From: a virus
Lineage: Duplodnaviria > Heunggongvirae > Uroviricota > Caudoviricetes
IMG/VR virus record: IMGVR_UViG_2547132253_000001
Strand: one strand, 5' to 3'
DNA: 17,844 bases
Shown one piece after another: positions 1,369 through 17,303 of this stretch. The notes beneath the pieces are model-generated. The model had not been told where the DNA came from, did no database searches, and was given only the letters and a program-made list of their open reading frames with translations. The position numbers were made by a program, and so were the translations under genes. The stretch's first letter is position 1; each line of letters opens with the position of its first letter.

Positions 1369-1444
1369 GCCGATATAGCTCAGTTGGTAGAGCAGCGCAT
1401 TCGTAATGCGAAGGTCGTAGGTTCGACTCCTATTATCGGCACCA
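1369..1444 (+). tRNA. thrW: tRNA-Thr (anticodon CGU)
   Basis: 76 nt GCCGATATAGCTCAGTTGGTAGAGCAGCGCATTCGTAATGCGAAGGTCGTAGGTTCGACTCCTATTATCGGCACCA: 7-bp acceptor stem (GCCGATA/TATCGGC), D-loop AGCTCAGTTGGTAGAGC, anticodon loop with CGT, T-arm GGTTCGACTCC, encoded 3' CCA; sits directly downstream of proA. Confidence 0.92.
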
Positions 1445-3475: not shown

Positions 3476-3679
3476 ATGGCTAATTACAATTCATTAATTC
3501 GTCTCTCTGAAGTTCAAAGGCGAACTGGTTATAGCAAAGCATGGATTTATCGTCTTATTAGTCAGGGGAGGTTCCCTAAACAGGTAAAAATTGGAAGTCG
3601 GGCAATTGCTTTTGTTGAGTCTGAAATAGATGAATGGATTGAGAAGTGTATATTAGAATCTAGAGACGAGGTGGCCTGA
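3476..3679 (+). CDS. alpA: AlpA-family phage transcriptional regulator (HTH), 67 aa
   Basis: ATG 3476 to TGA 3677-3679; sequence LIRLSEVQRRTGYSKAWIYRLISQGRFPKQVKIGSRAIAFVESEIDEWI fits the AlpA/MerR-like HTH pattern; stop overlaps the next ATG (TGATG). Confidence 0.85.
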   Translation: MANYNSLIRLSEVQRRTGYSKAWIYRLISQGRFPKQVKIGSRAIAFVESEIDEWIEKCILESRDEVA

Positions 3680-4122: not shown

Positions 4123-4956
4123 ATGAACATCGAAAAAAGCAGATTAATTTCTGAGGCCGCCCCTCATCTGAACGCCTCTCTGGGCACAATTAACGGTAAT
4201 GAATTTGCCGCAATTGTCCCGGTTATTCCTGGTCATATCGGTGGGCGTGAAACCAATATTGTTAGCGCAAAAGCGTTACACAAAGCGTTGGGCGTGGGAA
4301 AAGACTTCTCTACATGGATCACTGATCGCATCTCTGAATATGACTTCACCATTGGGCACGATTACTCAGTCCATAAAACAATTTCCCCAAATTTGGGGAA
4401 AAGCCCGAATGGCGCGGCTTACAGCAAGATTAAGCAGTCTGGCAGACCCGGCAAAGACTATCTGTTAAGTGTCGGAATGGCGAAAGAACTGGCAATGATC
4501 GAACGCAATGATCAGGGTCGCGCTATCCGCCGTTATTTCATCCAGTGCGAGGAAGAATTACAGCGTAGCGTGCCTGAAATCGCCGCCCGCTATCGTCGCC
4601 AGCTAAAAGCCCGTATCAGTGCCGCAAACAACTTTAAGCCAATGTGCGATGCGCTGAATATGGCCCGTGCCGAGATGGGTAAAACGACGCAGCAACACCA
4701 CTACACAAACGAGAGCAATATGATTTCTCGTATCGTTCTTGGTGGGCTAACTGCTAAACAGTGGGCGCGGATAAATGGCTATTCTGGCGAACCTCGCGAC
4801 CATATGAACGCAGAACAACTTGAGCACCTCTCATATCTCGAAAGCACCAATATCACGTTAATTGATATGGGCATGGAATATGAGCAGCGCAAAGGAGAAC
4901 TCACCCGCCTGTCGCAACGCTGGCTCGCCAAGCGTCTGGAGGTGGTCAATGTCTAA
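4123..4956 (+). CDS. Phage antirepressor-like protein (AntA/AntB-type N-terminal domain), 277 aa
   Basis: ATG 4123 with GGAGA SD; N-terminal region NIVSAKALHKALGVGKDFSTWITDRI and following LLSVGMAKELAMIERNDQGRAIRRYFIQCEEEL resemble the AntA/KilAC antirepressor pattern as I recall it. Confidence 0.65.
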   Translation: MNIEKSRLISEAAPHLNASLGTINGNEFAAIVPVIPGHIGGRETNIVSAKALHKALGVGKDFSTWITDRISEYDFTIGHDYSVHKTISPNLGKSPNGAAYSKIKQSGRPGKDYLLSVGMAKELAMIERNDQGRAIRRYFIQCEEELQRSVPEIAARYRRQLKARISAANNFKPMCDALNMARAEMGKTTQQHHYTNESNMISRIVLGGLTAKQWARINGYSGEPRDHMNAEQLEHLSYLESTNITLIDMGMEYEQRKGELTRLSQRWLAKRLEVVNV

Positions 4957-5131
4957 GCCAACAGGAACACCACAACCACAAAAACGCTACAAAGATGCCC
5001 ACGGAGCACTCGTTACTGTCGAAAGCGTGTCTCACAACCGAGTGACGTTTTATCGCGACGGGTATCAATCGCCATGCGTACAACCGCTGGCGCGTTTCAT
5101 GAAGGAGTTCGCGGAGGTTAACAAATGCTAA
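4949..5131 (+). CDS. Small hypothetical protein, 60 aa (DUF4222-like by recollection)
   Basis: ATG at 4949 overlaps the stop of the upstream gene (ATGTCTAA); this is the in-frame C-terminal part of track ORF 4862-5131; sequence MSKPTGTPQPQKRYKDAHGALVTVESVSHNRVTFYRDGY. Confidence 0.5.
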   Translation: MSKPTGTPQPQKRYKDAHGALVTVESVSHNRVTFYRDGYQSPCVQPLARFMKEFAEVNKC

Positions 5132-5562
5132 CCGTCCAGAAGAAGACATTTTCACTGGCTGGTATGTCGCCAAAATCCAGCAATATGACGGCAAAGTCAG
5201 GCATTAATACAGCAGATACAAGCAAAGTTTATCATTTGCTGTTGGTCGGAACGGATGCCTTAACCATATCAGAAATCTCGGGCGATGATATTAGCATTGA
5301 GAAGGTCAGCGGCTGCGCCAGAAAATTTCTGGTCGTAGATGATGTCTTCCGCTCGTGTAGTGACTCCACAAAAACATTCGTCCACGCGCGTGACGTTAAC
5401 GAAATGAGCGCGATGTACTGTGCATCTGGTGCTTCCAATAGCGAGTTTTCGGAGTCCATAAAAAAGAGCTTGCCGTTATGCGGCAACACGGTTTATGGTT
5501 ATAAGGCACCTCATAAAACGGGTGCCGGGATTGGCGTCCTGGTAAATCGAATGGCGACATAT

Positions 5563-5584
5563 GACGCGCCGAGCGTCTTTTTTT
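5563..5584 (+). terminator. Rho-independent terminator
   Basis: GACGC-GCCGA-GCGTC hairpin (5563-5577) followed by TTTTTTT (5578-5584). Confidence 0.6.
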
Positions 5585-5611
5585 ATGTCGTAGGTCTGAC
5601 TCACCCATTTT

Positions 5612-5636
5612 TTGGGCGTTGGTGTATAATCCAGCG
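5612..5636 (+). promoter_or_regulatory. Putative sigma70 promoter (perfect -10 TATAAT at 5625-5630; no good -35)
   Basis: TATAAT hexamer 5625-5630 immediately after the terminator and about 150 nt upstream of the Icd-like start; the -35 element is weak or mis-spaced (TTGGGC at 5612-5617). Confidence 0.3.
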
Positions 5637-5639
5637 CCT

Positions 5640-5786
5640 TTGTCAATCAATGGTGGCTCAGGCAGGGGCTTCTTCGGAAGCGCCGGTATCCATTCGAGCC
5701 GGTTACGCCAACCCTGTCTGGGCTACCACCAGCGAAATTGGCGTTTCCGGTGGTAGCGTTACATGCTATCGAATGGAGGCTGCCAC
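5640..5786 (+). ncRNA. Candidate structured leader / small regulatory RNA (P4 CI- or C4-like immunity RNA hypothesis)
   Basis: GCUUC-UUCG-GAAGC tetraloop hairpin (5668-5681); 9-bp stem GCTACCACC (5722-5730) pairing with GGTGGTAGC (5749-5757); an upstream GGTGG (5652-5656) could pair alternatively with CCACC; no coding frame supported here. Confidence 0.3.
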
Positions 5787-5981
5787 ATGCTGGCTACTAC
5801 CCCTACCCAAAAACCGCAATTTATCTGGATTATCGCCGCAGTTCGCCGCGATTGCCCGACAATTACCGCCAAAATTCATCATATTGCTGCCGAGTCTGAA
5901 CGCGATGCTCGCCGTTCTCTGGTGCGCGATCACGTCTGCTTTTTTGCTGGTCGTATCCGCATGGAGGTGGCTCATGATTAA
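5787..5981 (+). CDS. Icd-like host cell division inhibitor family protein, 64 aa
   Basis: ATG 5787 with GGAGG at 5775-5779; MLATTPTQKPQFIWIIAAVRRDCPTITAKIHH... resembles the Icd-like small proteins of P4-like prophages (recollection). Lies in a different frame inside the artifactual 355-aa track ORF. Confidence 0.65.
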   Translation: MLATTPTQKPQFIWIIAAVRRDCPTITAKIHHIAAESERDARRSLVRDHVCFFAGRIRMEVAHD

Positions 5982-6192
5982 AACCTACGATGTGCATATG
6001 GATCCCCTCGAACGCACAAGCCAGATCATCACACTGACAGAAGTGATTAACGACATTCTGGTGAGCAACTCTCCCTCACGAGACGAAAGACTGAAGGCGT
6101 TACTCGCGATATTGGATCTCGCCGTTCGTGACGTTCATTTCCTGCTGGAAGGTGGCGAAATGCCAGGAAAAACGGGGGCAACCAATGAATAA
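5974..6192 (+). CDS. Hypothetical small protein, 72 aa
   Basis: ATG 5974 preceded by GGAGGTGG (5963-5970); overlaps the Icd-like stop (ATGATTAA); C-terminal in-frame part of track ORF 5125-6192. Confidence 0.55.
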   Translation: MIKTYDVHMDPLERTSQIITLTEVINDILVSNSPSRDERLKALLAILDLAVRDVHFLLEGGEMPGKTGATNE

Positions 6193-7464: not shown

Positions 7465-10221
7465 ATGCGAAACATTGATCTTATCCGTCAGGTTATCAGT
7501 GCGTCTGAAAACAACTGGCCTCATGTGCTGGGCTGTCTGAACATAAATGTCCCTGACTCTCCTCGCCGTCATGCTCCCTGCCCTGCATGTGGGGGCAAAG
7601 ATCGATTCCGGTTCGACGACAACGGGCGCGGTAGCTTCATCTGTAATCAGTGCGGCGCTGGTGATGGGCTGGATTTAATTAAACGCGTAAATAACTGCGA
7701 CACAACAGAGGCGGCGCTTCTTGCCGCTGATGTTCTGGGTATTGATTACCGGACAACGGAAACACCAGAAGCCACCAGCCAGAAACGGGAACAACTGGAA
7801 ACCGAGCGCCAGCGACGCGAACAGGAGCGCCTGAAAAGGGCAGAGAAGGACGAACAACAAAGACGGGATACGTTTTCCCGTCAGTTTGATGACATGCGCA
7901 GAAAGGCTGTAAACGGCAAATCTGATTATCTGGTTGCGAAAGGGGTAGGTGATTTTACATTCCCAGTGTTGCCCGATGGATCTCTGTTGCTGGCGCTGGT
8001 GGATAAATCCGGCGCAGTCACAGCAGCACAGACTATTACCTCACATGGTGAAAAAAGACTCCTGACAGGTTCAGCAAAGCGAGGGGCATATCACGCCATA
8101 AACGCACCAGAAACAACACAGAGCATCTTAATCGCAGAAGGGCTGGCAACGGCATTATCTGCCCATTTAATTCGTCCAGAATCGCTGACAGTGGCGGCGA
8201 TTGATGCCGGGAACCTGTTATATGTCGCCCAGGTACTGCGGGATAAATTTCCTTCAGCACAAATCATCATTGCTGCGGATAACGACCACAGCGAAGGAAG
8301 ACAAAACACGGGGAGAATAGCAGCAGAAAAAGCAGCTTTATCTGTTTCTGGATGGGTGGCATTACCCCCGACAGATCACAAAGCAGACTGGAATGATTAC
8401 CACCAAAAACACGGCATTAAATGCGCCACAGAAGCGTTCAATAAGTCAATGTACCAACCACAGGGTAATGGCGTGAAACAGCAGCCACAGACCATTGAGG
8501 GAAGCGATTTTAAGGTTATGGATACCGACCCACTGAAACCAAGAATAGAAAGCCGCGAGGATGGTATTTATTGGGTATCTCCGAGAGCTGACAGCCAGAG
8601 TGGAGAAATCATCAATAACGAAAGCTGGTTATGTTCTCCGTTAAGCGTTATCGGTACTGGCAGAGACGATAAAGACCAGTATCTCATTCTTCGCTGGCTG
8701 TCGTTTGGTTCTGAAACGCCGACAACCGCTGCCATTCCACTGGCTGATATTGGTGAACGTGAAGGATGGCGCACACTTAAAGCTGGTGGGGTAAATGTCA
8801 CGACCAAAAGCAGCCTCAGAGCAATACTGGCAGACTGGCTACAACGCAGTGGCTCTCGTGAATTGTGGCGTGTTGCTCATGCCACTGGCTGGCAATGCGG
8901 AGCGTACATCATGCCTGATGGGGAAATCATCGGAACACCTGAAAATCCTGTGCTGTTCAGCGGGAGAAGCTCAGCCGCAGCCGGATATACCGTCTCAGGG
9001 AGCGCGAAAAGCTGGCGTGATAACGTGGCGCGTCTGGCCTTTGGTAACTATTCAATGATGACCGGGATCGGCGCAGCACTGGCAGCGCCATTGATTGGGC
9101 TGGTGGGCGCTGACGGGTTCGGCATTCATTTCTATGAGCAGTCGAGCGCAGGTAAGACCACCACGGCAAACGTGGCGAGCAGCTTATACGGCAACCCTGA
9201 TTTACTGCGGCTGACGTGGTACGGAACCGCGCTGGGGCTGGCAAATGAAGCCGCCGCCCACAATGACGGACTAATGCCGCTTGATGAAGTTGGTCAGGGC
9301 GCTGATCCTGTCAGTGTTTCACAGTCTGCCTATGCGTTATTTAACGGTGTAGGGAAACTGCAAGGCGCTAAAGATGGTGGAAACCGGGATCTAAAACGCT
9401 GGCGTACAGTGGCAATCAGCACTGGAGAAATGGATTTAGAAACATTTATCGCTACTTCCGGGCGAAAAACCAAAGCCGGGCAACTGGTGCGACTGCTGAA
9501 TATTCCGTTGAGTAAAGCAGTACGCTTTCACGATTACCAGAACGGAAAACAGCACGCAGACGCACTGAAAGACGCTTACCAGCATCACCACGGCGCAGCC
9601 GGGCGTGAGTGGATTAAATGGCTGGCAGACCACCAGCAACAGGCTATTAAAACTGTTCGTGACTGCGAAAGCAGATGGAGAAGCCTGATTCCATCCGATT
9701 ATGGTGAGCAGGTTCACCGTGTAGCCGCGCGATTTGCCATTCTGGAGGCCGCATTGCTGTTAGGCGAGGTTGTAACAGGCTGGGATGCTCAGACATGCCG
9801 TGATGCGATACAGCACAGCTATAACGCATGGTTGCGCGAGTTCGGCACAGGTAACAAAGAACATCAGCAGATTATTGAACAAACGGAGGCATTTCTTAAT
9901 GCCTATGGGCTTAGCCGTTTTGCACCATTTCCATACAGCCCGGCAGATTTGCCAATCAAAGATTTAGCCGGATACCGTCAGCGTGGAGAACATGACGAAA
10001 GCCCAATGATTTTCTACACATTCCCGGCCACATTTGAAAAGGAGATCGCATGTGGTTTCAACGCAAAACAGTTTGCTGAAGTGTTGAAAAAAGCCGGGAT
10101 GCTAACCCCACCAAACAGCGGTCGTGGATACCAAAGAAAATCACCACGTATTCAGGGACGACAAATAAACGTTTATGTACTCAATTACCAGCCAGGAGAT
10201 TACAACTCATCTGAAGAATGA
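7465..10221 (+). CDS. P4 alpha-like replication protein: zinc-finger/TOPRIM primase fused to a P-loop (D5/DUF927-like) helicase, 918 aa
   Basis: ATG 7465 with GGGGG SD; N-terminal zinc motif CPACGGKDRF...FICNQCG; TOPRIM-like acidic motif IIIAADNDHSEGR; P-loop FYEQSSAGKTTTANV in the C-terminal half; followed directly by iterons. Confidence 0.9.
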   Translation: MRNIDLIRQVISASENNWPHVLGCLNINVPDSPRRHAPCPACGGKDRFRFDDNGRGSFICNQCGAGDGLDLIKRVNNCDTTEAALLAADVLGIDYRTTETPEATSQKREQLETERQRREQERLKRAEKDEQQRRDTFSRQFDDMRRKAVNGKSDYLVAKGVGDFTFPVLPDGSLLLALVDKSGAVTAAQTITSHGEKRLLTGSAKRGAYHAINAPETTQSILIAEGLATALSAHLIRPESLTVAAIDAGNLLYVAQVLRDKFPSAQIIIAADNDHSEGRQNTGRIAAEKAALSVSGWVALPPTDHKADWNDYHQKHGIKCATEAFNKSMYQPQGNGVKQQPQTIEGSDFKVMDTDPLKPRIESREDGIYWVSPRADSQSGEIINNESWLCSPLSVIGTGRDDKDQYLILRWLSFGSETPTTAAIPLADIGEREGWRTLKAGGVNVTTKSSLRAILADWLQRSGSRELWRVAHATGWQCGAYIMPDGEIIGTPENPVLFSGRSSAAAGYTVSGSAKSWRDNVARLAFGNYSMMTGIGAALAAPLIGLVGADGFGIHFYEQSSAGKTTTANVASSLYGNPDLLRLTWYGTALGLANEAAAHNDGLMPLDEVGQGADPVSVSQSAYALFNGVGKLQGAKDGGNRDLKRWRTVAISTGEMDLETFIATSGRKTKAGQLVRLLNIPLSKAVRFHDYQNGKQHADALKDAYQHHHGAAGREWIKWLADHQQQAIKTVRDCESRWRSLIPSDYGEQVHRVAARFAILEAALLLGEVVTGWDAQTCRDAIQHSYNAWLREFGTGNKEHQQIIEQTEAFLNAYGLSRFAPFPYSPADLPIKDLAGYRQRGEHDESPMIFYTFPATFEKEIACGFNAKQFAEVLKKAGMLTPPNSGRGYQRKSPRIQGRQINVYVLNYQPGDYNSSEE

Positions 10222-10243: not shown

Positions 10244-10360
10244 GGTGTTGGTTCAGTTGGTTCAGTTGGTTCAATTTGTAAAGAGTATTGTTTTATAAGG
10301 ATTTTATTCTTTTTATTGAACCAACACTGAACCAACAACACGGTATTTTGAACCAACACA
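10244..10360. repeat. Origin-like iteron cluster (ori): 3 tandem GTTGGTTCA, about 43-bp AT-rich spacer, 3 inverted TGAACCAAC
   Basis: GTTGGTTCA at 10247-10255, 10256-10264, 10265-10273; AT-rich 10274-10316; TGAACCAAC at 10317-10325, 10328-10336, 10349-10357; 22 bp downstream of the primase stop. Confidence 0.7.
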
Positions 10361-10678
10361 ATGTGACTGAATTGATGCGCACAACACCTGGCTGGCATCA
10401 GAGAGTGTTTTACGAGACTTTCGTAAAATCCTGTGTACAAGGGCGTGACGTTTTTGAAAGTGAGCACTACGAAATTTTCGTAGTTCAAAAAACAGCCTTT
10501 GAGAAGTTGTTATGCCTGTTCAGCAAACCATCCGCATAGCTGATCGCGAATCAAATTACCAATGGAGCCAGAAGCAAGGGCAGAACTGGAAAGCGCCTGC
10601 CGTGAAGAGTAATGCGACACCATAAATATAGTTTTTAGAGTCCATAAAAAACCTGTCAAAACCTGACATACAGAACGA

Positions 10679-10710
10679 TGCCACCAGCTACTGAGCGGTG
10701 GCATTTTTTT
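10679..10710 (+). terminator. Rho-independent terminator separating the replication module from the cargo operon
   Basis: TGCCACC...GGTGGCA stem (10679-10703) followed by TTTTTTT (10704-10710). Confidence 0.55.
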
Positions 10711-10805
10711 GTGCTATTTGTTTCATATTTTGCAATTACGATGATGAATATTGCGATTTGTGAAACTATAATAACTGTTGTTTTATACAGTTCTAAGGGG
10801 GCGTT

Positions 10806-10979
10806 ATGGCTATTTCAGTAAAGCCAGTATTGATAAGTGAGAAGCAAATGGAAGCGATAAAGAAAATTCAGGAGGAGCAGCGTAAAAAATCAGAGGTAGG
10901 AGTTGCGCCAACGATCCACGAAATTGCTCGGGGATTAATGGATAAGGCGCTGGCTTACACTTTAACTGGACGTGGGTAA
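10806..10979 (+). CDS. Small protein, 57 aa, possible ribbon-helix-helix DNA-binding protein; first gene of the cargo operon
   Basis: ATG 10806 preceded by strong SD AAGGGGG (10795-10801) and a TATAAT at 10767-10772; below the 60-aa cutoff of the ORF track; sequence MAISVKPVLISEKQMEAIKKIQEEQRKKSEVGVAPTIHEIARGLMDKALAYTLTGRG. Confidence 0.45.
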   Translation: MAISVKPVLISEKQMEAIKKIQEEQRKKSEVGVAPTIHEIARGLMDKALAYTLTGRG

Positions 10980-10983
10980 ATCA

Positions 10984-12450
10984 ATGGCTACGTGGCAACA
11001 GGGTATTAATTCTGGTGGTTTTCTGGCTGGCATCGGTACGCAAAATGAGAATGCGCCAAAGGCAAGCGACATTAACGCAACGCTTGGTCTGATCCGCGAA
11101 AACAATGAACTGGCTCGCTCAGGTGCAAATAACGTTGGTCTGACCGCGTTACGTGGTCTGGCTGGAGTTGCTGATATTTATAAGCAGCAGCAACAGCAGG
11201 AGCGTAAAGCGGCATTCCAGAAAGGTTATGCAGATGCTTATGCGTCCGGCGACAGGGAGCAGATGCGTAATCTTATTACAGCATTCCCAGAAGAGTTTGA
11301 GGAAGTCCGTAAAGGGATGAGTTATGTCGATGATGCTCAAAGGGATGATTATGGCAATCTGGCGCTCAAAGCACAGGTAGCCTCATCGCTTGGTCCGGGC
11401 GCATTTGGCAGGTTCATGATGGATAATGAGCAGGAGATGCGTCGTTTAGGTATCCCTCCAGAAACTATTGCTGAAATGCAGGTTAATGACCCGCAGGGCT
11501 TCCAGCATTTCGCAGGTAATCTGGCGCTGTTTTCTCTCGGTCATGAGAAGTATTTCGATATCAAAGATCAAATGGAAGGTCGGGATATTGAGCGCGGCGA
11601 GTTGGCAGAGACAATCCGCAGCAATCAGGCTGGCGAAGCACTTCAGGCGAGAGGGCAGGATATTAGCCGAGCAAATGCGTTAACGTCAGCATATGCACCA
11701 ACAGCAGCAATGCAGAATTACAATCAGTACGCTCAAATGTTAAAGGCGGATCCAGAGGGGGCGGCGGCATTTGCGGCAGCGGCTGGAATTAATACAAACG
11801 CCAAAAAATTAATGAGTGTTAGGGAAAACGATGATGGCACTGTCACAAAATACTACACAGACGGAAGTGAAGAGCAGGGAAAACTAAACCAGCCAATATC
11901 TGGAGATGGGTTTCGTCCAATAGCTTTGCCAACAGCTCAAAAGATCATGGAAAAGTCGCCAGAAGGGGCTAAAAAAGCTGCTGGATTTGCATACAGAGTT
12001 AGGGATGCTCTTGATTCAATGGATACACTGAAAGGCCAGATTAGCCCACAGCGAGTGGCGATCATTAATAATGCTTTGGGTAATGGGACGCTGGCTAACT
12101 TAACGCTCAGCCCAACAGAGCAGCAATACGTTGTTAATGCTAATGACGCAATAATGGCAATACTCCGTCAGGAAACAGGGGCAGCTATCGTACCTGCTGA
12201 AATGTCAAAATATTATCAAATGTATTTCCCTCAGCCTGGTGATTCCACAAAAACCATTGATACCAAGCGCCGGAAGATGGAAAACCAGTTCAATTCGCTG
12301 AAAGCTGCTTCTGGTCGAGCTTATGATGCTTTGCAGGTTATTTCAGCAGTTGACAGAGGAACTTCTTCTTCGTCGCAGACATTGCCGCAATCTGAGCAGG
12401 TATCACAGCCAGCAGCCAGCAGTAACTTTTCTTCACTATGGGGTGATTAA
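10984..12450 (+). CDS. Uncharacterized Ala/Gln/Gly-rich protein, 488 aa (cargo gene 1)
   Basis: Long ORF; ATG at 10984 (MATWQQ) preferred over the track GTG at 10972; low-complexity composition (QQQQQ run, AAAFAAAAG), few aromatics, no catalytic or NTP-binding motif I can see; stop overlaps the next start. Confidence 0.7.
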   Translation: MATWQQGINSGGFLAGIGTQNENAPKASDINATLGLIRENNELARSGANNVGLTALRGLAGVADIYKQQQQQERKAAFQKGYADAYASGDREQMRNLITAFPEEFEEVRKGMSYVDDAQRDDYGNLALKAQVASSLGPGAFGRFMMDNEQEMRRLGIPPETIAEMQVNDPQGFQHFAGNLALFSLGHEKYFDIKDQMEGRDIERGELAETIRSNQAGEALQARGQDISRANALTSAYAPTAAMQNYNQYAQMLKADPEGAAAFAAAAGINTNAKKLMSVRENDDGTVTKYYTDGSEEQGKLNQPISGDGFRPIALPTAQKIMEKSPEGAKKAAGFAYRVRDALDSMDTLKGQISPQRVAIINNALGNGTLANLTLSPTEQQYVVNANDAIMAILRQETGAAIVPAEMSKYYQMYFPQPGDSTKTIDTKRRKMENQFNSLKAASGRAYDALQVISAVDRGTSSSSQTLPQSEQVSQPAASSNFSSLWGD

Positions 12451-13427
12451 TGGCTAAAGCATGGAAAGATGTTATCGCCTCTCCACAGTATCAGGCGTTA
12501 GCACCAGAACAAAAAGCGCAGGCTCAGGAGCAATACTTCAACGAAGTCGTTGCCCCGCAAGCCGGAGAAAGTGTAGAGCAGGCTAAGCAGGCTTTTTATG
12601 CTGCCTATCCACTACCATCAACGAATGAAATAGACCGAGCCCAATCAGCAACTCAAAATATTCAACATACATCATCTGATAATTCTCTTGCGTCAGGGTA
12701 TGCAAAGTTAGCGACTCAGCAAAGAGAGGGGCTTGAACGTTCAGCAGAACAGGGAGCCAGTCTTGGGGCTGCGATGCGCGATGCTATAACAGGCGAAAGC
12801 CGAATGACTCCAGAGATGGAGAGACTGCAAAATGTCGACCTTGCCCCAGAGTTAACCTCACTCAGCATGGATGCTCTAAAAGCTCGATGGTCTCAACTTT
12901 TCGGCTCTGACGCATCTCAGGAAAAGATTCTTCAGAGCATGGGAGCGAAATTAAGGCAGGATGAGAAGGGTAACACTATCGTTTCCCTACCATCCGGTGA
13001 TTATGCTCTGAACAAGCCGGGTTTATCACCGCAAGACGTGGCATCGTTTCTGGCTAATGCGCTGGCGTTTACACCAGCGGGCAGGGCCGGAACGGTGCTG
13101 GGGGCCATAGGGAAATCAGCAGCTACAGATTTAGCACTACAGGGAGCCACCAGCCTCGCTGGTGGAGAAGATATTGATCCGTTACAAACGGTAATCTCTG
13201 CTGGCATTGGCGGCATTGGTAAGGGTCTGGAGAATACAGTGAGTGCCGTTTCGAGGGCCGTTCGCGGTGATATGGCACCGGAAGCGAAAGCCGCTGTTGA
13301 TTTTGCATCGGAAAGAAACCTACCGTTAATGACCAGTGACGTACTGAAAGATAAAAACACTGTGCAGAGTCTGGCCCAGAAAACAGGCGAAAAAATTCCT
13401 TTTTTGGAACGGGTACGAACAGGCTGA
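12450..13427 (+). CDS. Uncharacterized Ala/Gly/Ser-rich protein, 325 aa (cargo gene 2); possibly the N-terminal part of a frameshifted fusion with gene 3
   Basis: ATG 12450 overlapping the gene 1 stop (TAATG), SD-like GGGG upstream; glycine-rich stretches (VLGAIGKSAATDLALQGATSLAGG, ISAGIGGIGKG); ends 22 nt after a T_TTT_TTG heptamer. Confidence 0.65.
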   Translation: MAKAWKDVIASPQYQALAPEQKAQAQEQYFNEVVAPQAGESVEQAKQAFYAAYPLPSTNEIDRAQSATQNIQHTSSDNSLASGYAKLATQQREGLERSAEQGASLGAAMRDAITGESRMTPEMERLQNVDLAPELTSLSMDALKARWSQLFGSDASQEKILQSMGAKLRQDEKGNTIVSLPSGDYALNKPGLSPQDVASFLANALAFTPAGRAGTVLGAIGKSAATDLALQGATSLAGGEDIDPLQTVISAGIGGIGKGLENTVSAVSRAVRGDMAPEAKAAVDFASERNLPLMTSDVLKDKNTVQSLAQKTGEKIPFLERVRTG

Positions 13428-13576
13428 ATCAACAACAGGCTCGGGAAAATCTGGTCAGAACATATAACGATGGTCTGGGAGGCATTTCAGATAAACAGCT
13501 TTATGAGTCTGCTACTAAAGGGCAGCAAAAATTCATTGAGGCCGCAGGTAAGCGATATAACCGCATAATTGACGCT

Positions 13577-14554
13577 ATGGGGGATACCCCTGTCGACCTA
13601 TCAAACACGGTAAAAGCTATCGACAATCAGATTGCCGTGTTAAGCCGCCCGGGCAAATCTCAGGATAGAGCCGCGGTAAAAGTCTTGCAGCAATTTAAAG
13701 ACGATATCACCAGCGGACCCAATGACCTGCGTCTGGCGAGAGAAAACAGAACTGACCTTCGAAAGCGGTTCATGAATTCAAACGAGACTGTTGATAAAGA
13801 CACGCTCCAGAAAGCCAGCGATATTGTCTACAAGGCATATACGCTGGATATGAGAAGGGCAGTAGCCCAGAAACTGGGTTCAGAAGAAGCAGCCAATATG
13901 GCAAGGGTTGATCGCTCATGGTCTAAATTCAATGACATGATGGGAAGAACGCGCGTTCAAAAGGCAATAGCCAGCGGCAAGGCCACGCCTGAGGATGTAA
14001 CAAAACTCGTGTTTAGCCAAAGCCCATCAGAACGTTCTCAGCTTTACAGGCTTCTGGATGACAATGGTAGGCAAAACGCACGAGCAGCCATAGTTCAGAA
14101 TGCTGTAGATAAGGCGACTGATCCGTCTGGAAATATCAGTGTTGAGAAGTTTATTAATGCGTTACACCGGAACAGGAAGCAATCAGCAACTTTCTTTAAA
14201 GGCGTGCACGGAAAGGAACTGGACGGCATTATTAAATACCTCAACGATACCAGACAGGCGGCAAAGGTTGACGGTCAGAAATTAAACAGCCAGAAACTTT
14301 ATGGCCTGCTGGTTGGTGGAGGCGCTATAAATGCGGCAGTTCTGGCGGGGATGCTGAAAACGGCTGCGTTTGTTGTTCCTGCTGCTGGTGCTTTAGGCGG
14401 AGCAGCGAAGGCATACGAAAGCCCTGTTATACGAAATGCCTTATTACGTCTGGCAAATACGCCAAAAGGTAGCACAGCATATGACAGAGCGATCAGTACA
14501 GTCACACAATCACTGACCACAGCAGCACAAGCATCGCAAAAGGAAGCTCAATAA
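13577..14554 (+). CDS. Uncharacterized protein, 325 aa as annotated (cargo gene 3), with C-terminal glycine-zipper hydrophobic hairpin; reading frame is open upstream to 13355
   Basis: First ATG at 13577 has no SD; the same frame is open and protein-like from 13355 with no ATG/GTG/TTG in between; hydrophobic Gly/Ala-rich segments LYGLLVGGGAINAAVLAGML and AAFVVPAAGALGGAA near the C-terminus. Confidence 0.6.
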   Translation: MGDTPVDLSNTVKAIDNQIAVLSRPGKSQDRAAVKVLQQFKDDITSGPNDLRLARENRTDLRKRFMNSNETVDKDTLQKASDIVYKAYTLDMRRAVAQKLGSEEAANMARVDRSWSKFNDMMGRTRVQKAIASGKATPEDVTKLVFSQSPSERSQLYRLLDDNGRQNARAAIVQNAVDKATDPSGNISVEKFINALHRNRKQSATFFKGVHGKELDGIIKYLNDTRQAAKVDGQKLNSQKLYGLLVGGGAINAAVLAGMLKTAAFVVPAAGALGGAAKAYESPVIRNALLRLANTPKGSTAYDRAISTVTQSLTTAAQASQKEAQ

Positions 14555-14613: not shown

Positions 14614-15012
14614 TTAACACTTGCCTTTAACATTGCCGACAAATGAGCCTGTAAATGAGCCTATATCAGATCGACTAATTGTTCGTGTATGGATCACTTT
14701 TCCGTCATTTGAGATTGCCCATGTGACAAGCGTCAGTTGACCATCTCGATAGCTTCTTCCCATCATGGCATTCGGAGATAGCGGGTAATAATCAATACCT
14801 CCACCTATACCATCTTTTGCCAAGATAAGATCCGCCTTCTCTTTACTTATTACCAAATGAAAGGTATCTGGTATAGATGATAACTTATAGTTATACCCAT
14901 CTGAACTTGAGGCTTCTTGTCCTTTCAGATCACCAATAATCCAGCATTCAGCGTTCGCTCCAAAAGAAGCAAATAATAAACCGGAGACAACCAATCGCTT
15001 CAATTGATTCAC
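14614..15012 (-). CDS. Small secreted/periplasmic protein of unknown function, 132 aa precursor with Sec signal peptide
   Basis: GTG start (complement of 15010-15012) preceded on the minus strand by strong SD AAGGGAGGG; N-terminus MNQLKRLVVSGLLFASFGANA then E (positively charged n-region, hydrophobic core, A-x-A cleavage motif); the longer 218-aa track ORF 14614-15270 is an upstream extension lacking an SD. Confidence 0.6.
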   Translation of the reverse strand: MNQLKRLVVSGLLFASFGANAECWIIGDLKGQEASSSDGYNYKLSSIPDTFHLVISKEKADLILAKDGIGGGIDYYPLSPNAMMGRSYRDGQLTLVTWAISNDGKVIHTRTISRSDIGSFTGSFVGNVKGKC

Positions 15013-15204
15013 ACCAACCCTCCCTTTAGCGTTGTTTAGAATGGCAATCATCATATATCCAAGACATGGCATTTGGTACATAGCTTGGGTCGGGATTTCA
15101 AATCCGCCCCCGTTGATGGGGTCGTTACAGTACGCGCATATCCGCTTTATGTGAAACAGGAAGATTTTTCTGATATCACTGCCACAGCAAAACACCAATT
15201 TCGA

Positions 15205-15505
15205 GACAAGTACGCGCGCGAGGGGTATCAGTTGCAAAAAGTTTTGCAACTGCGTCCGACCAGTACGCACACAATGGAGGGGAGTACCATGAAACTGTTC
15301 TCTACACGAGACAGAGTGGTGGTGATGTGTTGATTATCGGCGTATATGCGCACAGGACGCGCTATGACGATGTTTTATGCGGGTACACCATCACATGTAT
15401 CTGGTGTGATAAATCGCGTTACATGACCTCTCATGTTGTGCTGGTGGTTATCACGACTTTCTGAATCTGGCCTTTGCCTGATATTTTGCGACAAGTACGC
15501 GCGCG
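15205..15505. repeat. Two copies of a 16-bp perfect direct repeat GACAAGTACGCGCGCG (15205-15220 and 15490-15505), with a related inverted partial copy between them
   Basis: Identical 16-mers 285 bp apart with similar left flanks (TTTCGA / TTTTGC); alternating CG core; related GTACGCGCATAT at 15130-15141 and its near-complement ATATGCGCAC at 15345-15354. Confidence 0.5.
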
Positions 15506-15656
15506 TAGCATCGAAATTATCGGATGGCGTATGCTGCTGGCAATATGAAGACCGATAGTATTAACCGAAAAGCGATTAAGGAGTGCCAACTTTTCAGTAG
15601 AGAAACTAGCCAGCATAGGAAAATGTAGAAATTACCCAATTAATAGGTAAAAGTTA

Positions 15657-15774
15657 TTGACACAGCCTGTAGTGGATAACGATATGAATAAAAACCACAT
15701 ATAGTGGTTTTTCGTGAGTGATGATAGTACCTATGTTAGTTTCCTAAGTAACTGTGCATTGACATGTGGATAAC
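15657..15774 (+). promoter_or_regulatory. Two TTGACA hexamers each followed by a DnaA-box-like GTGGATAAC motif, upstream of the Abi gene
   Basis: TTGACA 15657-15662 followed by AGTGGATAAC 15671-15680; TTGACA 15759-15764 followed by TGTGGATAAC 15765-15774 (TGTGGATAA is the reverse complement of the DnaA box TTATCCACA); palindrome AAAAACCAC-ATATA-GTGGTTTTT at 15690-15712. Confidence 0.35.
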
Positions 15775-15884
15775 TTCGGATAGAGTTACACTCAACTGAG
15801 CCCGGCCCCCTGGCTTTATCTTGTCTTAGATGAGAAATTGTTATGGCCGGGCCTTCTTGTATCTGGAGGTAGGAAACCTTTTGT

Positions 15885-16754
15885 ATGGCTGTTCCGGTTA
15901 AGGTTCATAAAGAATATGATGAACTTGTCGATTTATTGCTGTCTCGGGGTATGGATGTGCCAGATCGCGAACATGCTATCAAGAAAATCTCACAAGTAGG
16001 CTACTACCGATTATCAGGCTTTTGGTACCCCTGCCGAATCCCCCATATAACAACAGACAATATTAGAACCAGACTCGATCAGGTTCGTCCAGGTACTAAT
16101 TTTCGCGCAGTATATGACCTCTATTTATTCGATAAAAATCTGCGTTTGCAGATGATGAATGCGTTAGAACGCATTGAGGTTTATGTTCGGTCAGTTATTG
16201 CTCATGAGCTTGGTAAGATATCTCCTTTAGCATATCTTGATGACTCGCTAATAAATCCAAAACACTTTAGACCACGTTCCCATGGTCGCCCAAGCGCCAG
16301 AGAAGAATGGATAAATAAACATAATGCCGAGATTGCTAAAAGTCGCGAAGACTTTATCAAATGGCATGAAAACAAGTACGAAGGTCTTCCTTTCTGGGTG
16401 GTTATTGAAGTGTGGGACTTCGGCTTAATGTCAAAGTATTATGCGATGCTAAAAGACAGCTATCGCAACAGGATACTATCTAGGCTAGGGATAGCGGCAG
16501 GCAATGGAGCTATCTTCCAAAACTGGCTTAGCGCAATGAATGTGCTAAGGAATCGGTGCGCTCACCATTCACGCATCTGGAACAAGGTCAACGAACCAAG
16601 ATTAATGCCTTTGCCAAATGAGCCGTACTTTGAACAATTAAATATGAATGATGATGCGTACGAAAGAATGTACGGAATGATCGCTGTGTTATGGTTTTTA
16701 GTGAAAAAAATTGGACCGGGATCTGACTGGATAAAAAAGTTGCCAACCTTGTAG
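15885..16754 (+). CDS. Abi_2 family (AbiD/AbiF-like) abortive-infection protein with HEPN-type R-x4-H motif, 289 aa
   Basis: N-terminal EYDELVDLLLSRGMDVPDREHAIKKISQVGYYRLSGFWYP matches the conserved Abi_2 N-terminal pattern as I recall it; LRNRCAHHSRIWN (nt about 16549-16572) carries an R-x4-H HEPN-like motif; ATG 15885, stop TAG 16752-16754. Confidence 0.8.
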   Translation: MAVPVKVHKEYDELVDLLLSRGMDVPDREHAIKKISQVGYYRLSGFWYPCRIPHITTDNIRTRLDQVRPGTNFRAVYDLYLFDKNLRLQMMNALERIEVYVRSVIAHELGKISPLAYLDDSLINPKHFRPRSHGRPSAREEWINKHNAEIAKSREDFIKWHENKYEGLPFWVVIEVWDFGLMSKYYAMLKDSYRNRILSRLGIAAGNGAIFQNWLSAMNVLRNRCAHHSRIWNKVNEPRLMPLPNEPYFEQLNMNDDAYERMYGMIAVLWFLVKKIGPGSDWIKKLPTL

Positions 16755-16847
16755 ATAACAAGCCTAACTTACCAGGATGTAACCTGACAGCCATGGGATT
16801 ACCTGATAATAACGGTTTCCCAAGGCATTTATTTGATATTGAATAAA

Positions 16848-17303
16848 TTATAGCGATGGCGCTGAATGTAGCGCCACTGATAACTTTTCAGCATTGCTTC
16901 CCTGACGCTTCCACGCGCTGTAAATATCTTTATCCCATGCCTTACCAGCTTTTGTTTGATAGCCTGCTTCATTGATCCGTTCAGCTATCACGCGCCCATT
17001 ATCAAATCCCTGTCGGATGGTATCGGCAATGATCTTTATAACTGCCGTTTCGTTATATGGCTTTGGTGGGATGTTCGGCTTTCCGGCAATAAGCGACGCA
17101 GCGGCTTTTTCCATGCGCTCCACCAGCCCAAGCATTCGTGAATCAATAGACTTTTCCGGCTGTCCCAGCTTCATGCGAATCGCATCAACAAGCCAGGAGG
17201 TTTTATCCCCTCCAGAAGCGAGAACAGACCGATTAAACTCATCCTGCAATTCAGATGGGATGCGGAACGCGACCAGATTAGATTTGCTCATTGCAAAGAC
17301 CAT
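16848..17303 (-). CDS. Putative DNA-binding regulator, 151 aa (N-terminal ribbon-helix-helix-like, C-terminal recombinase-type HTH-like segment)
   Basis: Minus-strand ORF convergent with the Abi gene; N-terminus SNLVAFRIPSELQDEFNRSV; C-terminal NGRVIAERINEAGYQTKAGKAWDKDIYSAWKRQ resembles the DNA-binding segment seen in serine-recombinase-associated domains. The start (first or second ATG) is uncertain. Confidence 0.55.
   Translation of the reverse strand: MVFAMSKSNLVAFRIPSELQDEFNRSVLASGGDKTSWLVDAIRMKLGQPEKSIDSRMLGLVERMEKAAASLIAGKPNIPPKPYNETAVIKIIADTIRQGFDNGRVIAERINEAGYQTKAGKAWDKDIYSAWKRQGSNAEKLSVALHSAPSL

Follow-up and report, generated by a model that had tools for sequence, protein, structure and literature searches.

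Homologues of P22 ejection proteins in the operon of an EcCIMP1-like phage-inducible chromosomal island

Two ejection-protein genes behind a leader gene

The stretch of DNA analysed here (virus record IMGVR_UViG_2547132253_000001; 17,844 nucleotides (nt), referred to as the window) carries between positions 10,806 and 14,554 an operon made up of a leader gene, a gp20-type gene and a gp16-type gene. We find that the window is an EcCIMP1-like phage-inducible chromosomal island (PICI) at tRNA-Thr beside proA, rather than a P4-type satellite, and that the operon lies after the replication module, in the slot of the satellite "packaging module". Judged by their sequences, both large proteins of the operon are homologues of the ejection proteins gp20 and gp16 of phage P22. 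They are the sole virion-type genes in the window; among the window open reading frames (ORFs) scanned, no Pfam or PHROG match to capsid, tail, terminase or lysis genes was obtained. A preliminary description, made from the letters alone, had read the locus as a cargo operon of three large, low-complexity proteins with no recognisable domains, possibly a defence module with a membrane-inserting effector, and had named virion-associated ejection or internal proteins as the fallback. It is this fallback that the homology bears out. The coordinates of all features are collected in Table 1.

The 488-amino-acid (aa) gp20-type protein matches the Pfam family Inj_translocase (PF16928) with 284.2 bits (cut-off 29.7; E value 9e-85) over profile positions 1-217 of 218, and it matches PHROG 917 over its full length (4e-145). 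Its N-terminal 18 residues (MATWQQGINSGGFLAGIG) are the same as in P22 gp20, to which the protein is 55% identical over residues 1-238. The gp20 of a CUS-3-like prophage (strain N62) is closer still, with 87% amino acid and 94% nucleotide identity over residues 1-253 and no match past residue 253, and the closest relative of the C-terminal half is gp20 of phage APSE (52% identity, residues 50-455). The architecture is that of a conserved Inj_translocase module in the N-terminal ~250 aa, followed by a C-terminal half of a different mosaic type. This exact gp20 was not found in sequenced phages, where the APSE protein is the best full-length match and the 87% match covers the N-terminal half only. 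The gp20-type gene is immediately upstream of, and translationally coupled to, the gp16-type gene: stop and start codons overlap as TAATG at 12450, and genes 20 and 16 of P22 have the same junction (at 11484). A search of PDB sequences with both large proteins returned no match, and no NCBIfam model matched the window proteins.

The remainder of the operon was previously described as two further proteins of 325 aa each, following the 488-aa ORF with a translationally linked start. The 488-aa ORF and the linked start at TAATG stand; the last two ORFs (12450-13427 and 13577-14554), which lie in different frames and 150 nt apart, are the N- and C-terminal halves of one gene. There are accordingly two large proteins and not three, the second split by the deletion of 1 nt in a T-run. 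Each half has its own match to PHROG 770 ("DNA transfer protein"), at positions 3-266 (7.6e-41) and 325-667 (2.3e-91), and the second ORF can be extended upstream without a stop codon to ~13350. Where the window has T6, seven homologues have T7; restoring the seventh T yields a gene of 2106 nt and 701 aa, the same as the gene annotated in E. coli CP53. The intact protein aligns by BLASTP to P22 gp16 with 30% identity over 481 aa (E value 1e-53), the alignment being continuous across the frameshift junction, and it is 91% identical over residues 69-701 to gp16 of the CUS-3-like prophage of strain N62. The Pfam library gave no gp16-family match for this gp16 type, and some RefSeq records name it "P22-gp16 family". 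With PF16928, PHROG 917 and PHROG 770 assigned, the view that these proteins lack recognisable domains can no longer be held.

Several observations bear on the frameshift. Each of the best matches to the 4-kb cassette is one base longer than the window query, the gene is intact in all seven other gp16-type copies analysed, and the full-length gp16-type matches are all exactly 2106 nt (even sample, 728 genomes with a match). Because the deletion is private to the window among the copies compared, we take the T6 to be a homopolymer sequencing error or a recent slip. T6 was seen elsewhere in one complete genome only, HB37 (L041), where the gene lies on a different island at a different attachment (att) site and is annotated as frameshifted. 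The T7-to-T6 slip occurs independently in HB37, and the homopolymer is therefore a recurrent error site or a mutation hotspot. We also considered a programmed frameshift at the T-run and rejected it, since every other copy but one has T7 and a continuous frame.

The hydrophobic Gly/Ala hairpin reported near the C-terminus is real. It reaches a Kyte-Doolittle value of 1.6-1.7 (19-residue window), which is more hydrophobic than its counterpart in P22, and it aligns to residues 532-565 of P22 gp16 with G532 opposite G623 and P546 opposite K637. The substitutions G532W and P546S, by which P22 gp16 escapes SieA, fall in this same segment (PMC10883804). As for low complexity, Ala, Gln, Gly and Ser do make up 36-37% of the large proteins compared with 25-32% of the integrase and primase, but the term was an overstatement: P22 gp20 and gp16 have the same composition (35-40%), and the sequence entropy of ~4.0 bits is ordinary.

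These results make it extremely improbable that the operon is a new anti-phage defence system with a membrane-inserting effector, unrelated to virion function. The satellite does carry an AbiD gene, and the hydrophobic hairpin is present, but the homology to gp20 and gp16 is unambiguous, PADLOC gave 0 matches for the leader, gp20-type and gp16-type proteins and matched only the downstream AbiD gene, and the ORF taken for an effector encodes just the C-terminal half of a protein whose gene is frameshifted. The preliminary description had itself held that clear homology to phage structural proteins, conserved in a structural-gene context, would speak against defence; we find the homology to phage ejection proteins, and in the window it occurs outside such a context.

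Operon head and island backbone

The head of the operon agrees with what was first described. A hairpin followed by a T-run, placed earlier at 10679-10710, ends the upstream unit, and the leader is indeed a 57-aa gene with a strong Shine-Dalgarno (SD) sequence. The terminator-like sequence is conserved in an alignment with EcCIMP1 and AH21H025. For the promoter we compared seven islands from five genera in an alignment of 190 nt surrounding the leader start. In it the TATAAT hexamer is invariant, and conserved blocks, TTTCAT..TGCAAT and ATTGC, lie upstream of it. A generic promoter scan missed this conserved promoter because its -35 element is weak, and the cross-genus alignment alone revealed it. 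The blocks TTTCAT..TGCAAT could be candidate sites for AlpA or for the leader protein.

A predicted LexA (SOS) box adjoins the -10 hexamer. The pattern CTGT-N8-ACAG has a single occurrence in the 17.8-kb window (0.23 expected). Islands of Escherichia, Serratia and Erwinia, as well as locus L040, have a predicted LexA box at the equivalent place, agreeing with the consensus at 14-17 of 20 positions; the L040 version reads CTG-N10-CAG. The operon is predicted to be SOS-inducible through this box.

The leader gene has 45 homologues with an invariant GVAPT-H-IARGL-DKAL helix and matches no Pfam, NCBIfam or PHROG family. We considered whether it is a fragment of gp7 or gp14, and rejected this because a tblastn search of 50,697 phage records came up empty and BLASTP against the prophage gp7 gave no match. 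The AlphaFold2 model of the monomer has an extended N-terminus and two helices, with a predicted local distance difference test (pLDDT) score of 76, and a Foldseek search with this model found nothing. The leader is possibly a ribbon-helix-helix DNA-binding protein.

The integrase, AlpA regulator, primase and adjacent iteron origin are all present in the window, with the same gene order as in EcCIMP1; the left att core lies within tRNA-Thr, and the right end of the island is outside the window. The repeats directly 3′ of the primase gene, with an AT-rich spacer between direct and inverted copies, are a typical iteron replication origin of the island. Two iteron clusters had been proposed to flank the operon, and the upstream one is this origin; the downstream one may be the repeats at 15198-15509, which are of a different kind (GACAAGTACGCGCGCG). 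Assignment to the P4-like satellites was correct in so far as the context is that of a satellite. The Psu, Sid and Delta families had no Pfam match among the ORFs scanned, and the traits in common with P4 are the Zn-ribbon/Toprim/DUF927 primase, an Ash-family gene and a C4-type antisense RNA only.

Two further regions of the island deserve mention. On the plus strand, Rfam models for isrK (67 bits) and C4 antisense RNA (79.5 bits) match in the region 5506-5583 and 5646-5733, both above their gathering scores and both inside the 355-aa Ash-family ORF. The corresponding annotation in EcCIMP1 and other islands shows a truncated ash gene and, after it, an Icd-like gene. These findings suggest that the ORF is over-called and that the region holds an antisense-RNA immunity switch of the P1/P4 type. 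Downstream of the operon, the AbiD gene lies in a segment (15515-16880) that is missing from the otherwise 99.9% identical CP53 island. AbiD copies are found at the equivalent place in Serratia L027 (86% identical) and in Erwinia (68-71%). This AbiD segment is the real defence hotspot of the island.

Table 1. Features of the 17,844-nt window and their positions.
Feature	Position	Strand	Remarks
proA	window start		flank of tRNA-Thr
tRNA-Thr(CGT)	1369-1444
Left att core	1428-1437		TCCTATTATC
Tyrosine integrase	1610-2824
AlpA regulator	3476-3679
AntA antirepressor	4123-4956
Ash-family ORF	5125-6192		355 aa
Primase	7465-10221		918 aa; Zn-ribbon/Toprim/DUF927
Ori iterons	10247-10359	.	GTTGGTTCA x3, then inverted copy TGAACCAAC x3; repeat search
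Intrinsic-terminator-like hairpin	~10670-10712	+	GATGCCACC...GGTGGCATC and T7 run; ends upstream unit
-10 hexamer	10767-10772	+	TATAAT; in 16 of 18 related islands examined
LexA (SOS) box, predicted	10773-10792	+	AACTGTTGTTTTATACAGTT; 1 nt past -10 hexamer
Leader gene	10806-10979	+	57 aa; SD AAGGGGG; specific to this island family
gp20-type ejection protein	10984-12450	+	488 aa; ATG start; Pfam PF16928, PHROG 917
gp16-type DNA transfer (ejection) protein	12450-14554	+	701 aa if intact; here two 325-aa ORFs
T6 run, 1-nt deletion site	13400-13405	+	T7 in seven homologues
Hydrophobic Gly/Ala hairpin of gp16-type protein	14297-14401	+	residues 617-651 of intact protein
Small secreted protein	14614-15054	-	146 aa; signal peptide ending ...FASFGANA before E; PHROG 2651, function unknown; slot of sieA in P22
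Downstream repeats	15198-15509		GACAAGTACGCGCGCG-like 20-mers x3 and CGCGCG-containing inverted pair; intergenic, downstream of convergent gene; distinct from ori iterons
AbiD/Abi_2 abortive-infection gene	15885-16754		PADLOC AbiD 5e-54

Distribution, mosaicism and selection

The gp16-type gene (at least 80% covered) is present in 398 of 5426 complete E. coli genomes (~7%). We opened eight evenly sampled contexts and observed five intact islands, two island remnants truncated by insertion sequences (IS) and one CUS-3-like prophage, the copy in the latter having 89.8% nucleotide identity over 89% of the gene and canonical structural order. With even sampling, the gp16 type is about six times commoner in islands than in prophages. 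A scan of contigs with the gp16-type protein, aimed at near relatives in other species, returned 14 loci, comprising 13 P22-like prophages or fragments and one island (L005), and the leader gene is a better handle than the gp16-type protein for finding related islands. In the CUS-3-like prophage of N62 the order is portal ... gp10, gp26, gp14, gp7, gp20, gp16, tailspike. Most of 13 other P22-like prophage loci have the same canonical order where the locus is long enough, and none of them has the leader gene.

What follows the leader varies in E. coli. We observe (a) the gp20-type and CUS-3-type gp16 genes of the window, (b) gp14, gp7, gp20 and a 906-aa protein, as in EcCIMP1, (c) gp14 and gp7 together with the window-type pair, and (d) a Kapi1-like gp20 (75% identity) with a Kapi1-like gp16 (41% identity). 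These cassettes stand behind varied integrases, att sites (thrW; the dinD/yicG region) and replicases (DUF927 or DUF5906). In the gp20-type protein it is the N-terminal ~250 aa, and in the gp16-type protein the first ~55 aa, that are shared with P22-like phages (74-95% identity), and the remainder differs; the ~55 residues are a module common to HK620 and others (74-93% identity). Recombination has its boundaries precisely at the gp20 start codon and in the vicinity of the gp20/gp16 junction, and the cassette boundaries are the edges of segments that are 94-97% nucleotide-identical to prophages. On these sequence comparisons, the island ejection genes are mosaics of modules from P22-like prophages.

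The junction between the two genes is itself strongly conserved. Positions 12398-12619 take in the 3′-terminal ~50-60 nt of the gp20-type gene and the initial ~170 nt of the gp16-type gene, and here alleles of otherwise unrelated types remain 95-100% identical in nucleotide sequence in many prophages and islands of E. coli. This segment could be a recombination linker, or a module in which the gp20 tail and the gp16 head interact.

Pairwise ratios of nonsynonymous to synonymous substitution rates (dN/dS) are 0.12-0.25 for the gp16-type gene (seven intact copies, dS up to 0.26) and 0.19-0.31 for the gp20-type gene between alignable copies, values that indicate purifying selection on the island copies. 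They bear on whether the operon is a functionless passenger, a decaying fragment of a P22-like late operon acquired by recombination. Such a fragment could account for the frameshifted copies of the window and HB37, for IS-truncated island remnants that still keep the gene, and for boundaries that match the prophage-shared segments. It is hard to reconcile with the dN/dS of 0.12-0.25 among island copies, with the 2106 nt kept in every full-length match, with a module that stays behind the same leader and promoter across integrases, replicases, att sites and genera, and with a gp16 type that is so much commoner in islands than in prophages. We regard a passenger as very unlikely. That the operon is a prophage remnant was likewise rejected, on context and on selection, and the leader with its ejection module is a family trait rather than a relic.

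Islands of other genera carry different proteins after the same leader. Those of Serratia (L027/L028) have a gp20-type and an SLT-gp16-type protein, and L040 has the full gp14/7/20/16 set. In Erwinia persicina (L031/L032) and in L039, a small ORF is followed by a tape-measure protein of 1050-1166 aa (PHROG 1107, 1202 bits); Klebsiella quasipneumoniae (L033/L034) has a 671-aa tape-measure protein with an SLT domain and a Dit-like protein, and Raoultella (L029/L030) a 605-aa protein with a region resembling tape-measure proteins and transglycosylases. Loci L037 and L038 encode a virion protein with an SLT domain along with other large virion proteins; in L038 these come after an internal virion protein resembling T7 gp14. 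Nine distinct contexts were compared altogether, and in each of them the slot is occupied by proteins of a type that forms or opens the path for DNA delivery. According to a December 2025 preprint, tape-measure proteins are otherwise absent from satellites, bar one proposal for PLE11 (PMC12822802).

A possible role in genome delivery and comparison with known systems

The only relative of the window that has been tested experimentally is EcCIMP1 of E. coli MP1, an island that measures 20 kb and is inserted at tRNA-Thr with proA on one side and yagU on the other. It is excised only upon induction of the P22-like (Lederbergvirus) phage Kapi1, is transduced by this phage, and needs its own AlpA and integrase (Pick, Stadel and Raivio 2025; PMC11773190). 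We compared the ejection proteins of island and helper in this one validated pair and found identities of 83% for gp14, 57% for gp7, 26% for gp20 and 24% for gp16. In E. coli TUM9803 (NZ_CP135671.1, 4445319-4515000; L035 with L025) an apparently complete P22-like prophage and an island lie in tandem at thrW and form a candidate natural helper-satellite pair. Here gp16 is 33% identical between the two, and gp20 49% identical in the N-terminal module only. Given this divergence, the islands carry an alternative set and not a spare copy. Very divergent ejection proteins can replace those of P22 in virion assembly and injection; the mosaic pattern of gp20 and gp16 is typical of P22-like ejection proteins, and both are targets of SieA and the most variable virion proteins (PMC10883804).

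We favour the reading, with a probability of roughly 0.6, that the operon encodes genome-delivery proteins of the satellite that are loaded into helper virions. DNA damage would induce the resident P22-like helper prophage, and LexA cleavage would derepress the TATAAT/SOS-box promoter. The island gp20- and gp16-type proteins would be produced together with the late proteins of the helper, and their conserved N-terminal modules would admit them to helper procapsids. In the next infection they would be ejected before the DNA, the gp20-type protein then forming the periplasmic tube and the gp16-type protein the inner-membrane part of the conduit. By these steps, particles from an island-carrying cell would inject through conduit proteins specified by the satellite. 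We prefer this reading because the full-length conservation, the whole gp14/7/20/16 sets, the interchangeability of ejection proteins, the unaffected helper titre and the cross-genus delivery theme all fit it.

What the satellite would gain can be suggested only tentatively. It may acquire an injection specificity unlike that of the helper, for example entry past SieA-like inner-membrane exclusion, an idea that is attractive because gp20 and gp16 are SieA targets and helper lysogens would be the best recipients of a satellite. A broader proposal, which we also hold to be doubtful though possible, is that a widespread family of enterobacterial satellites, marked by the 57-aa leader and often by an SOS box, carries delivery proteins matched to the morphotype of the helper and so sets injection specificity. 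These would be gp14/7/20/16 for P22-like helpers, T7-type core proteins for other podoviruses and tape-measure proteins for long-tailed phages.

A number of points weigh against delivery by satellite proteins. The helper already supplies ejection proteins, which leaves the benefit unexplained, and the SieA-bypass idea has only the positions of the escape mutations and the mosaic divergence behind it. Transduction of EcCIMP1 is very infrequent, and the authors who described it suggested that the module serves packaging (PMC11773190). Either the gp16-type protein of this window is non-functional or the sequence is in error. In Klebsiella, Raoultella and loci L037-L039 the LexA box falls short by one base or is absent, and some of the purifying selection might stem from recent phage import instead of selection in islands.

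The proteins might also act against P22-like phages, through dead-end mixed conduits or saturation of membrane or periplasmic sites in the resident cell (superinfection exclusion), or through incorporation into helper progeny that become less infectious. In EcCIMP1, superinfection immunity to Kapi1 is added in lysogens (PMC11773190), no known defence system was found there and the responsible gene is unmapped; other PICIs have their interference genes in the slot that the operon takes up here, the hairpin of the gp16-type protein exceeds its P22 counterpart in hydrophobicity, and the slot adjoining the operon can hold a SieA-like gene. We nevertheless judge exclusion or interference to be unlikely. 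EcCIMP1 neither lowers the Kapi1 titre after induction nor protects non-lysogens (PMC11773190). Lacking signal peptides, the large proteins would be synthesised across the membrane from the periplasmic conduit that they would have to block, and full-length architecture, in some islands with whole gp14/7/20/16 sets under purifying selection, is not obviously required of a decoy.

Exclusion is more readily ascribed to the neighbouring genes, which encode membrane, lipoprotein or secreted products. In SCU-172 (L020 14126-14740) the sieA slot holds a SieA-like inner-membrane protein with 29% identity and the RYPGEA motif in common. In XH987, TUM9803 and KC-Dl-1 (L021/L025/L026 14125-14514) it holds a protein with 3-4 transmembrane segments that is 87-89% identical to that of the CUS-3-like prophage, and in EcCIMP1 (L002 11749-12447) a 232-aa lipoprotein. 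These sieA-slot genes are candidates for the superinfection immunity of EcCIMP1, and more obvious ones than the ejection operon. The convergent gene of the window was considered as a SieA homologue and rejected, as it has no similarity to SieA.

Ejection proteins of P22 are dispensable for capsid assembly and packaging and are required for injection only. This role is relevant to a hijack of packaging or capsids, as proposed for EcCIMP1_017-019, by which the proteins would redirect helper procapsids or terminase to island DNA. The operon does lie in the canonical position of the PICI packaging module after the primase, no recognisable small terminase or capsid-size gene was found in the island, and the ejection proteins adjoin the portal inside the P22 capsid (PMC4992974). 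The dispensability of the P22 homologues argues against such a hijack (PMC10883804). So do the results that no terminase-like or scaffold-like similarity was found and that the slot in related islands holds tape-measure proteins, which have no packaging role. We consider it improbable.

The element and the protein families are known, and a satellite that supplies its own delivery proteins is only hinted at in the literature. Known satellites redirect packaging, resize capsids or, in the case of capsid-forming PICIs, build their own heads. If the delivery reading is true, replacement of the injection-conduit proteins by a satellite would extend piracy to a new stage, the entry into the next cell. 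The extreme mosaicism of gp20 and gp16 would then have a concrete explanation, and satellites would be linked to superinfection exclusion at the level of injection. The gp16 type is found mostly in such islands, which also carry AbiD and PerC-type cargo, so that the question bears on the spread of these traits. There is a lesson for annotation as well: island genes that look hypothetical and of low complexity can be ejection proteins, and here a homopolymer frameshift created a false picture of three genes.

Among known systems, EcCIMP1 is the most similar to the window. The two have in common the tRNA-Thr site beside proA with att core TCCTATTATC, the genes for integrase, AlpA, AntA, DUF4222, Ash and primase (the primase 99.5% identical), the iterons, the leader (87% identity) with an identical promoter/LexA-box region, and ejection genes in the same slot. 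Unlike the window, EcCIMP1 has a gp14-like (DUF2824) and a gp7-like gene (P22_gp7, 1.9e-72), a distant Inj_translocase gp20-type gene (28% identity to that of the window), and in the gp16 position a 906-aa protein with a lytic transglycosylase domain and after it a lipoprotein; the window has only the gp20-type and CUS-3-type gp16 genes, plus the AbiD insertion. The ejection proteins of P22, CUS-3, HK620, Sf6 and APSE resemble those of the window in gene order, TAATG overlap, N-terminal modules and composition. In contrast to these phages, the window is a satellite without portal, coat, tail and terminase genes, gp7 and gp14 are absent, and the ejection genes stand behind an island leader and an SOS-box promoter, outside a phage late operon.

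More distant parallels are found in other satellites. Operon I of the staphylococcal pathogenicity islands (SaPIs) is likewise a satellite operon 3′ of the replication module; its products act on the formation of helper virions, and LexA control, predicted here, has been shown for SaPIs (PMC5052747). It differs in encoding TerS, CpmA/B and Pti, which serve packaging specificity, capsid size and interference, and it has neither ejection proteins nor sequence kinship with the window. The mycobacterial EPIPs and PLE11, which are reported to encode a tape-measure protein (cited in PMC12822802), resemble the Erwinia, Klebsiella and L039 islands in that the satellite has its own tape-measure (conduit) protein. 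They have unrelated hosts and other backbones, and the window differs from them in carrying podovirus ejection proteins.

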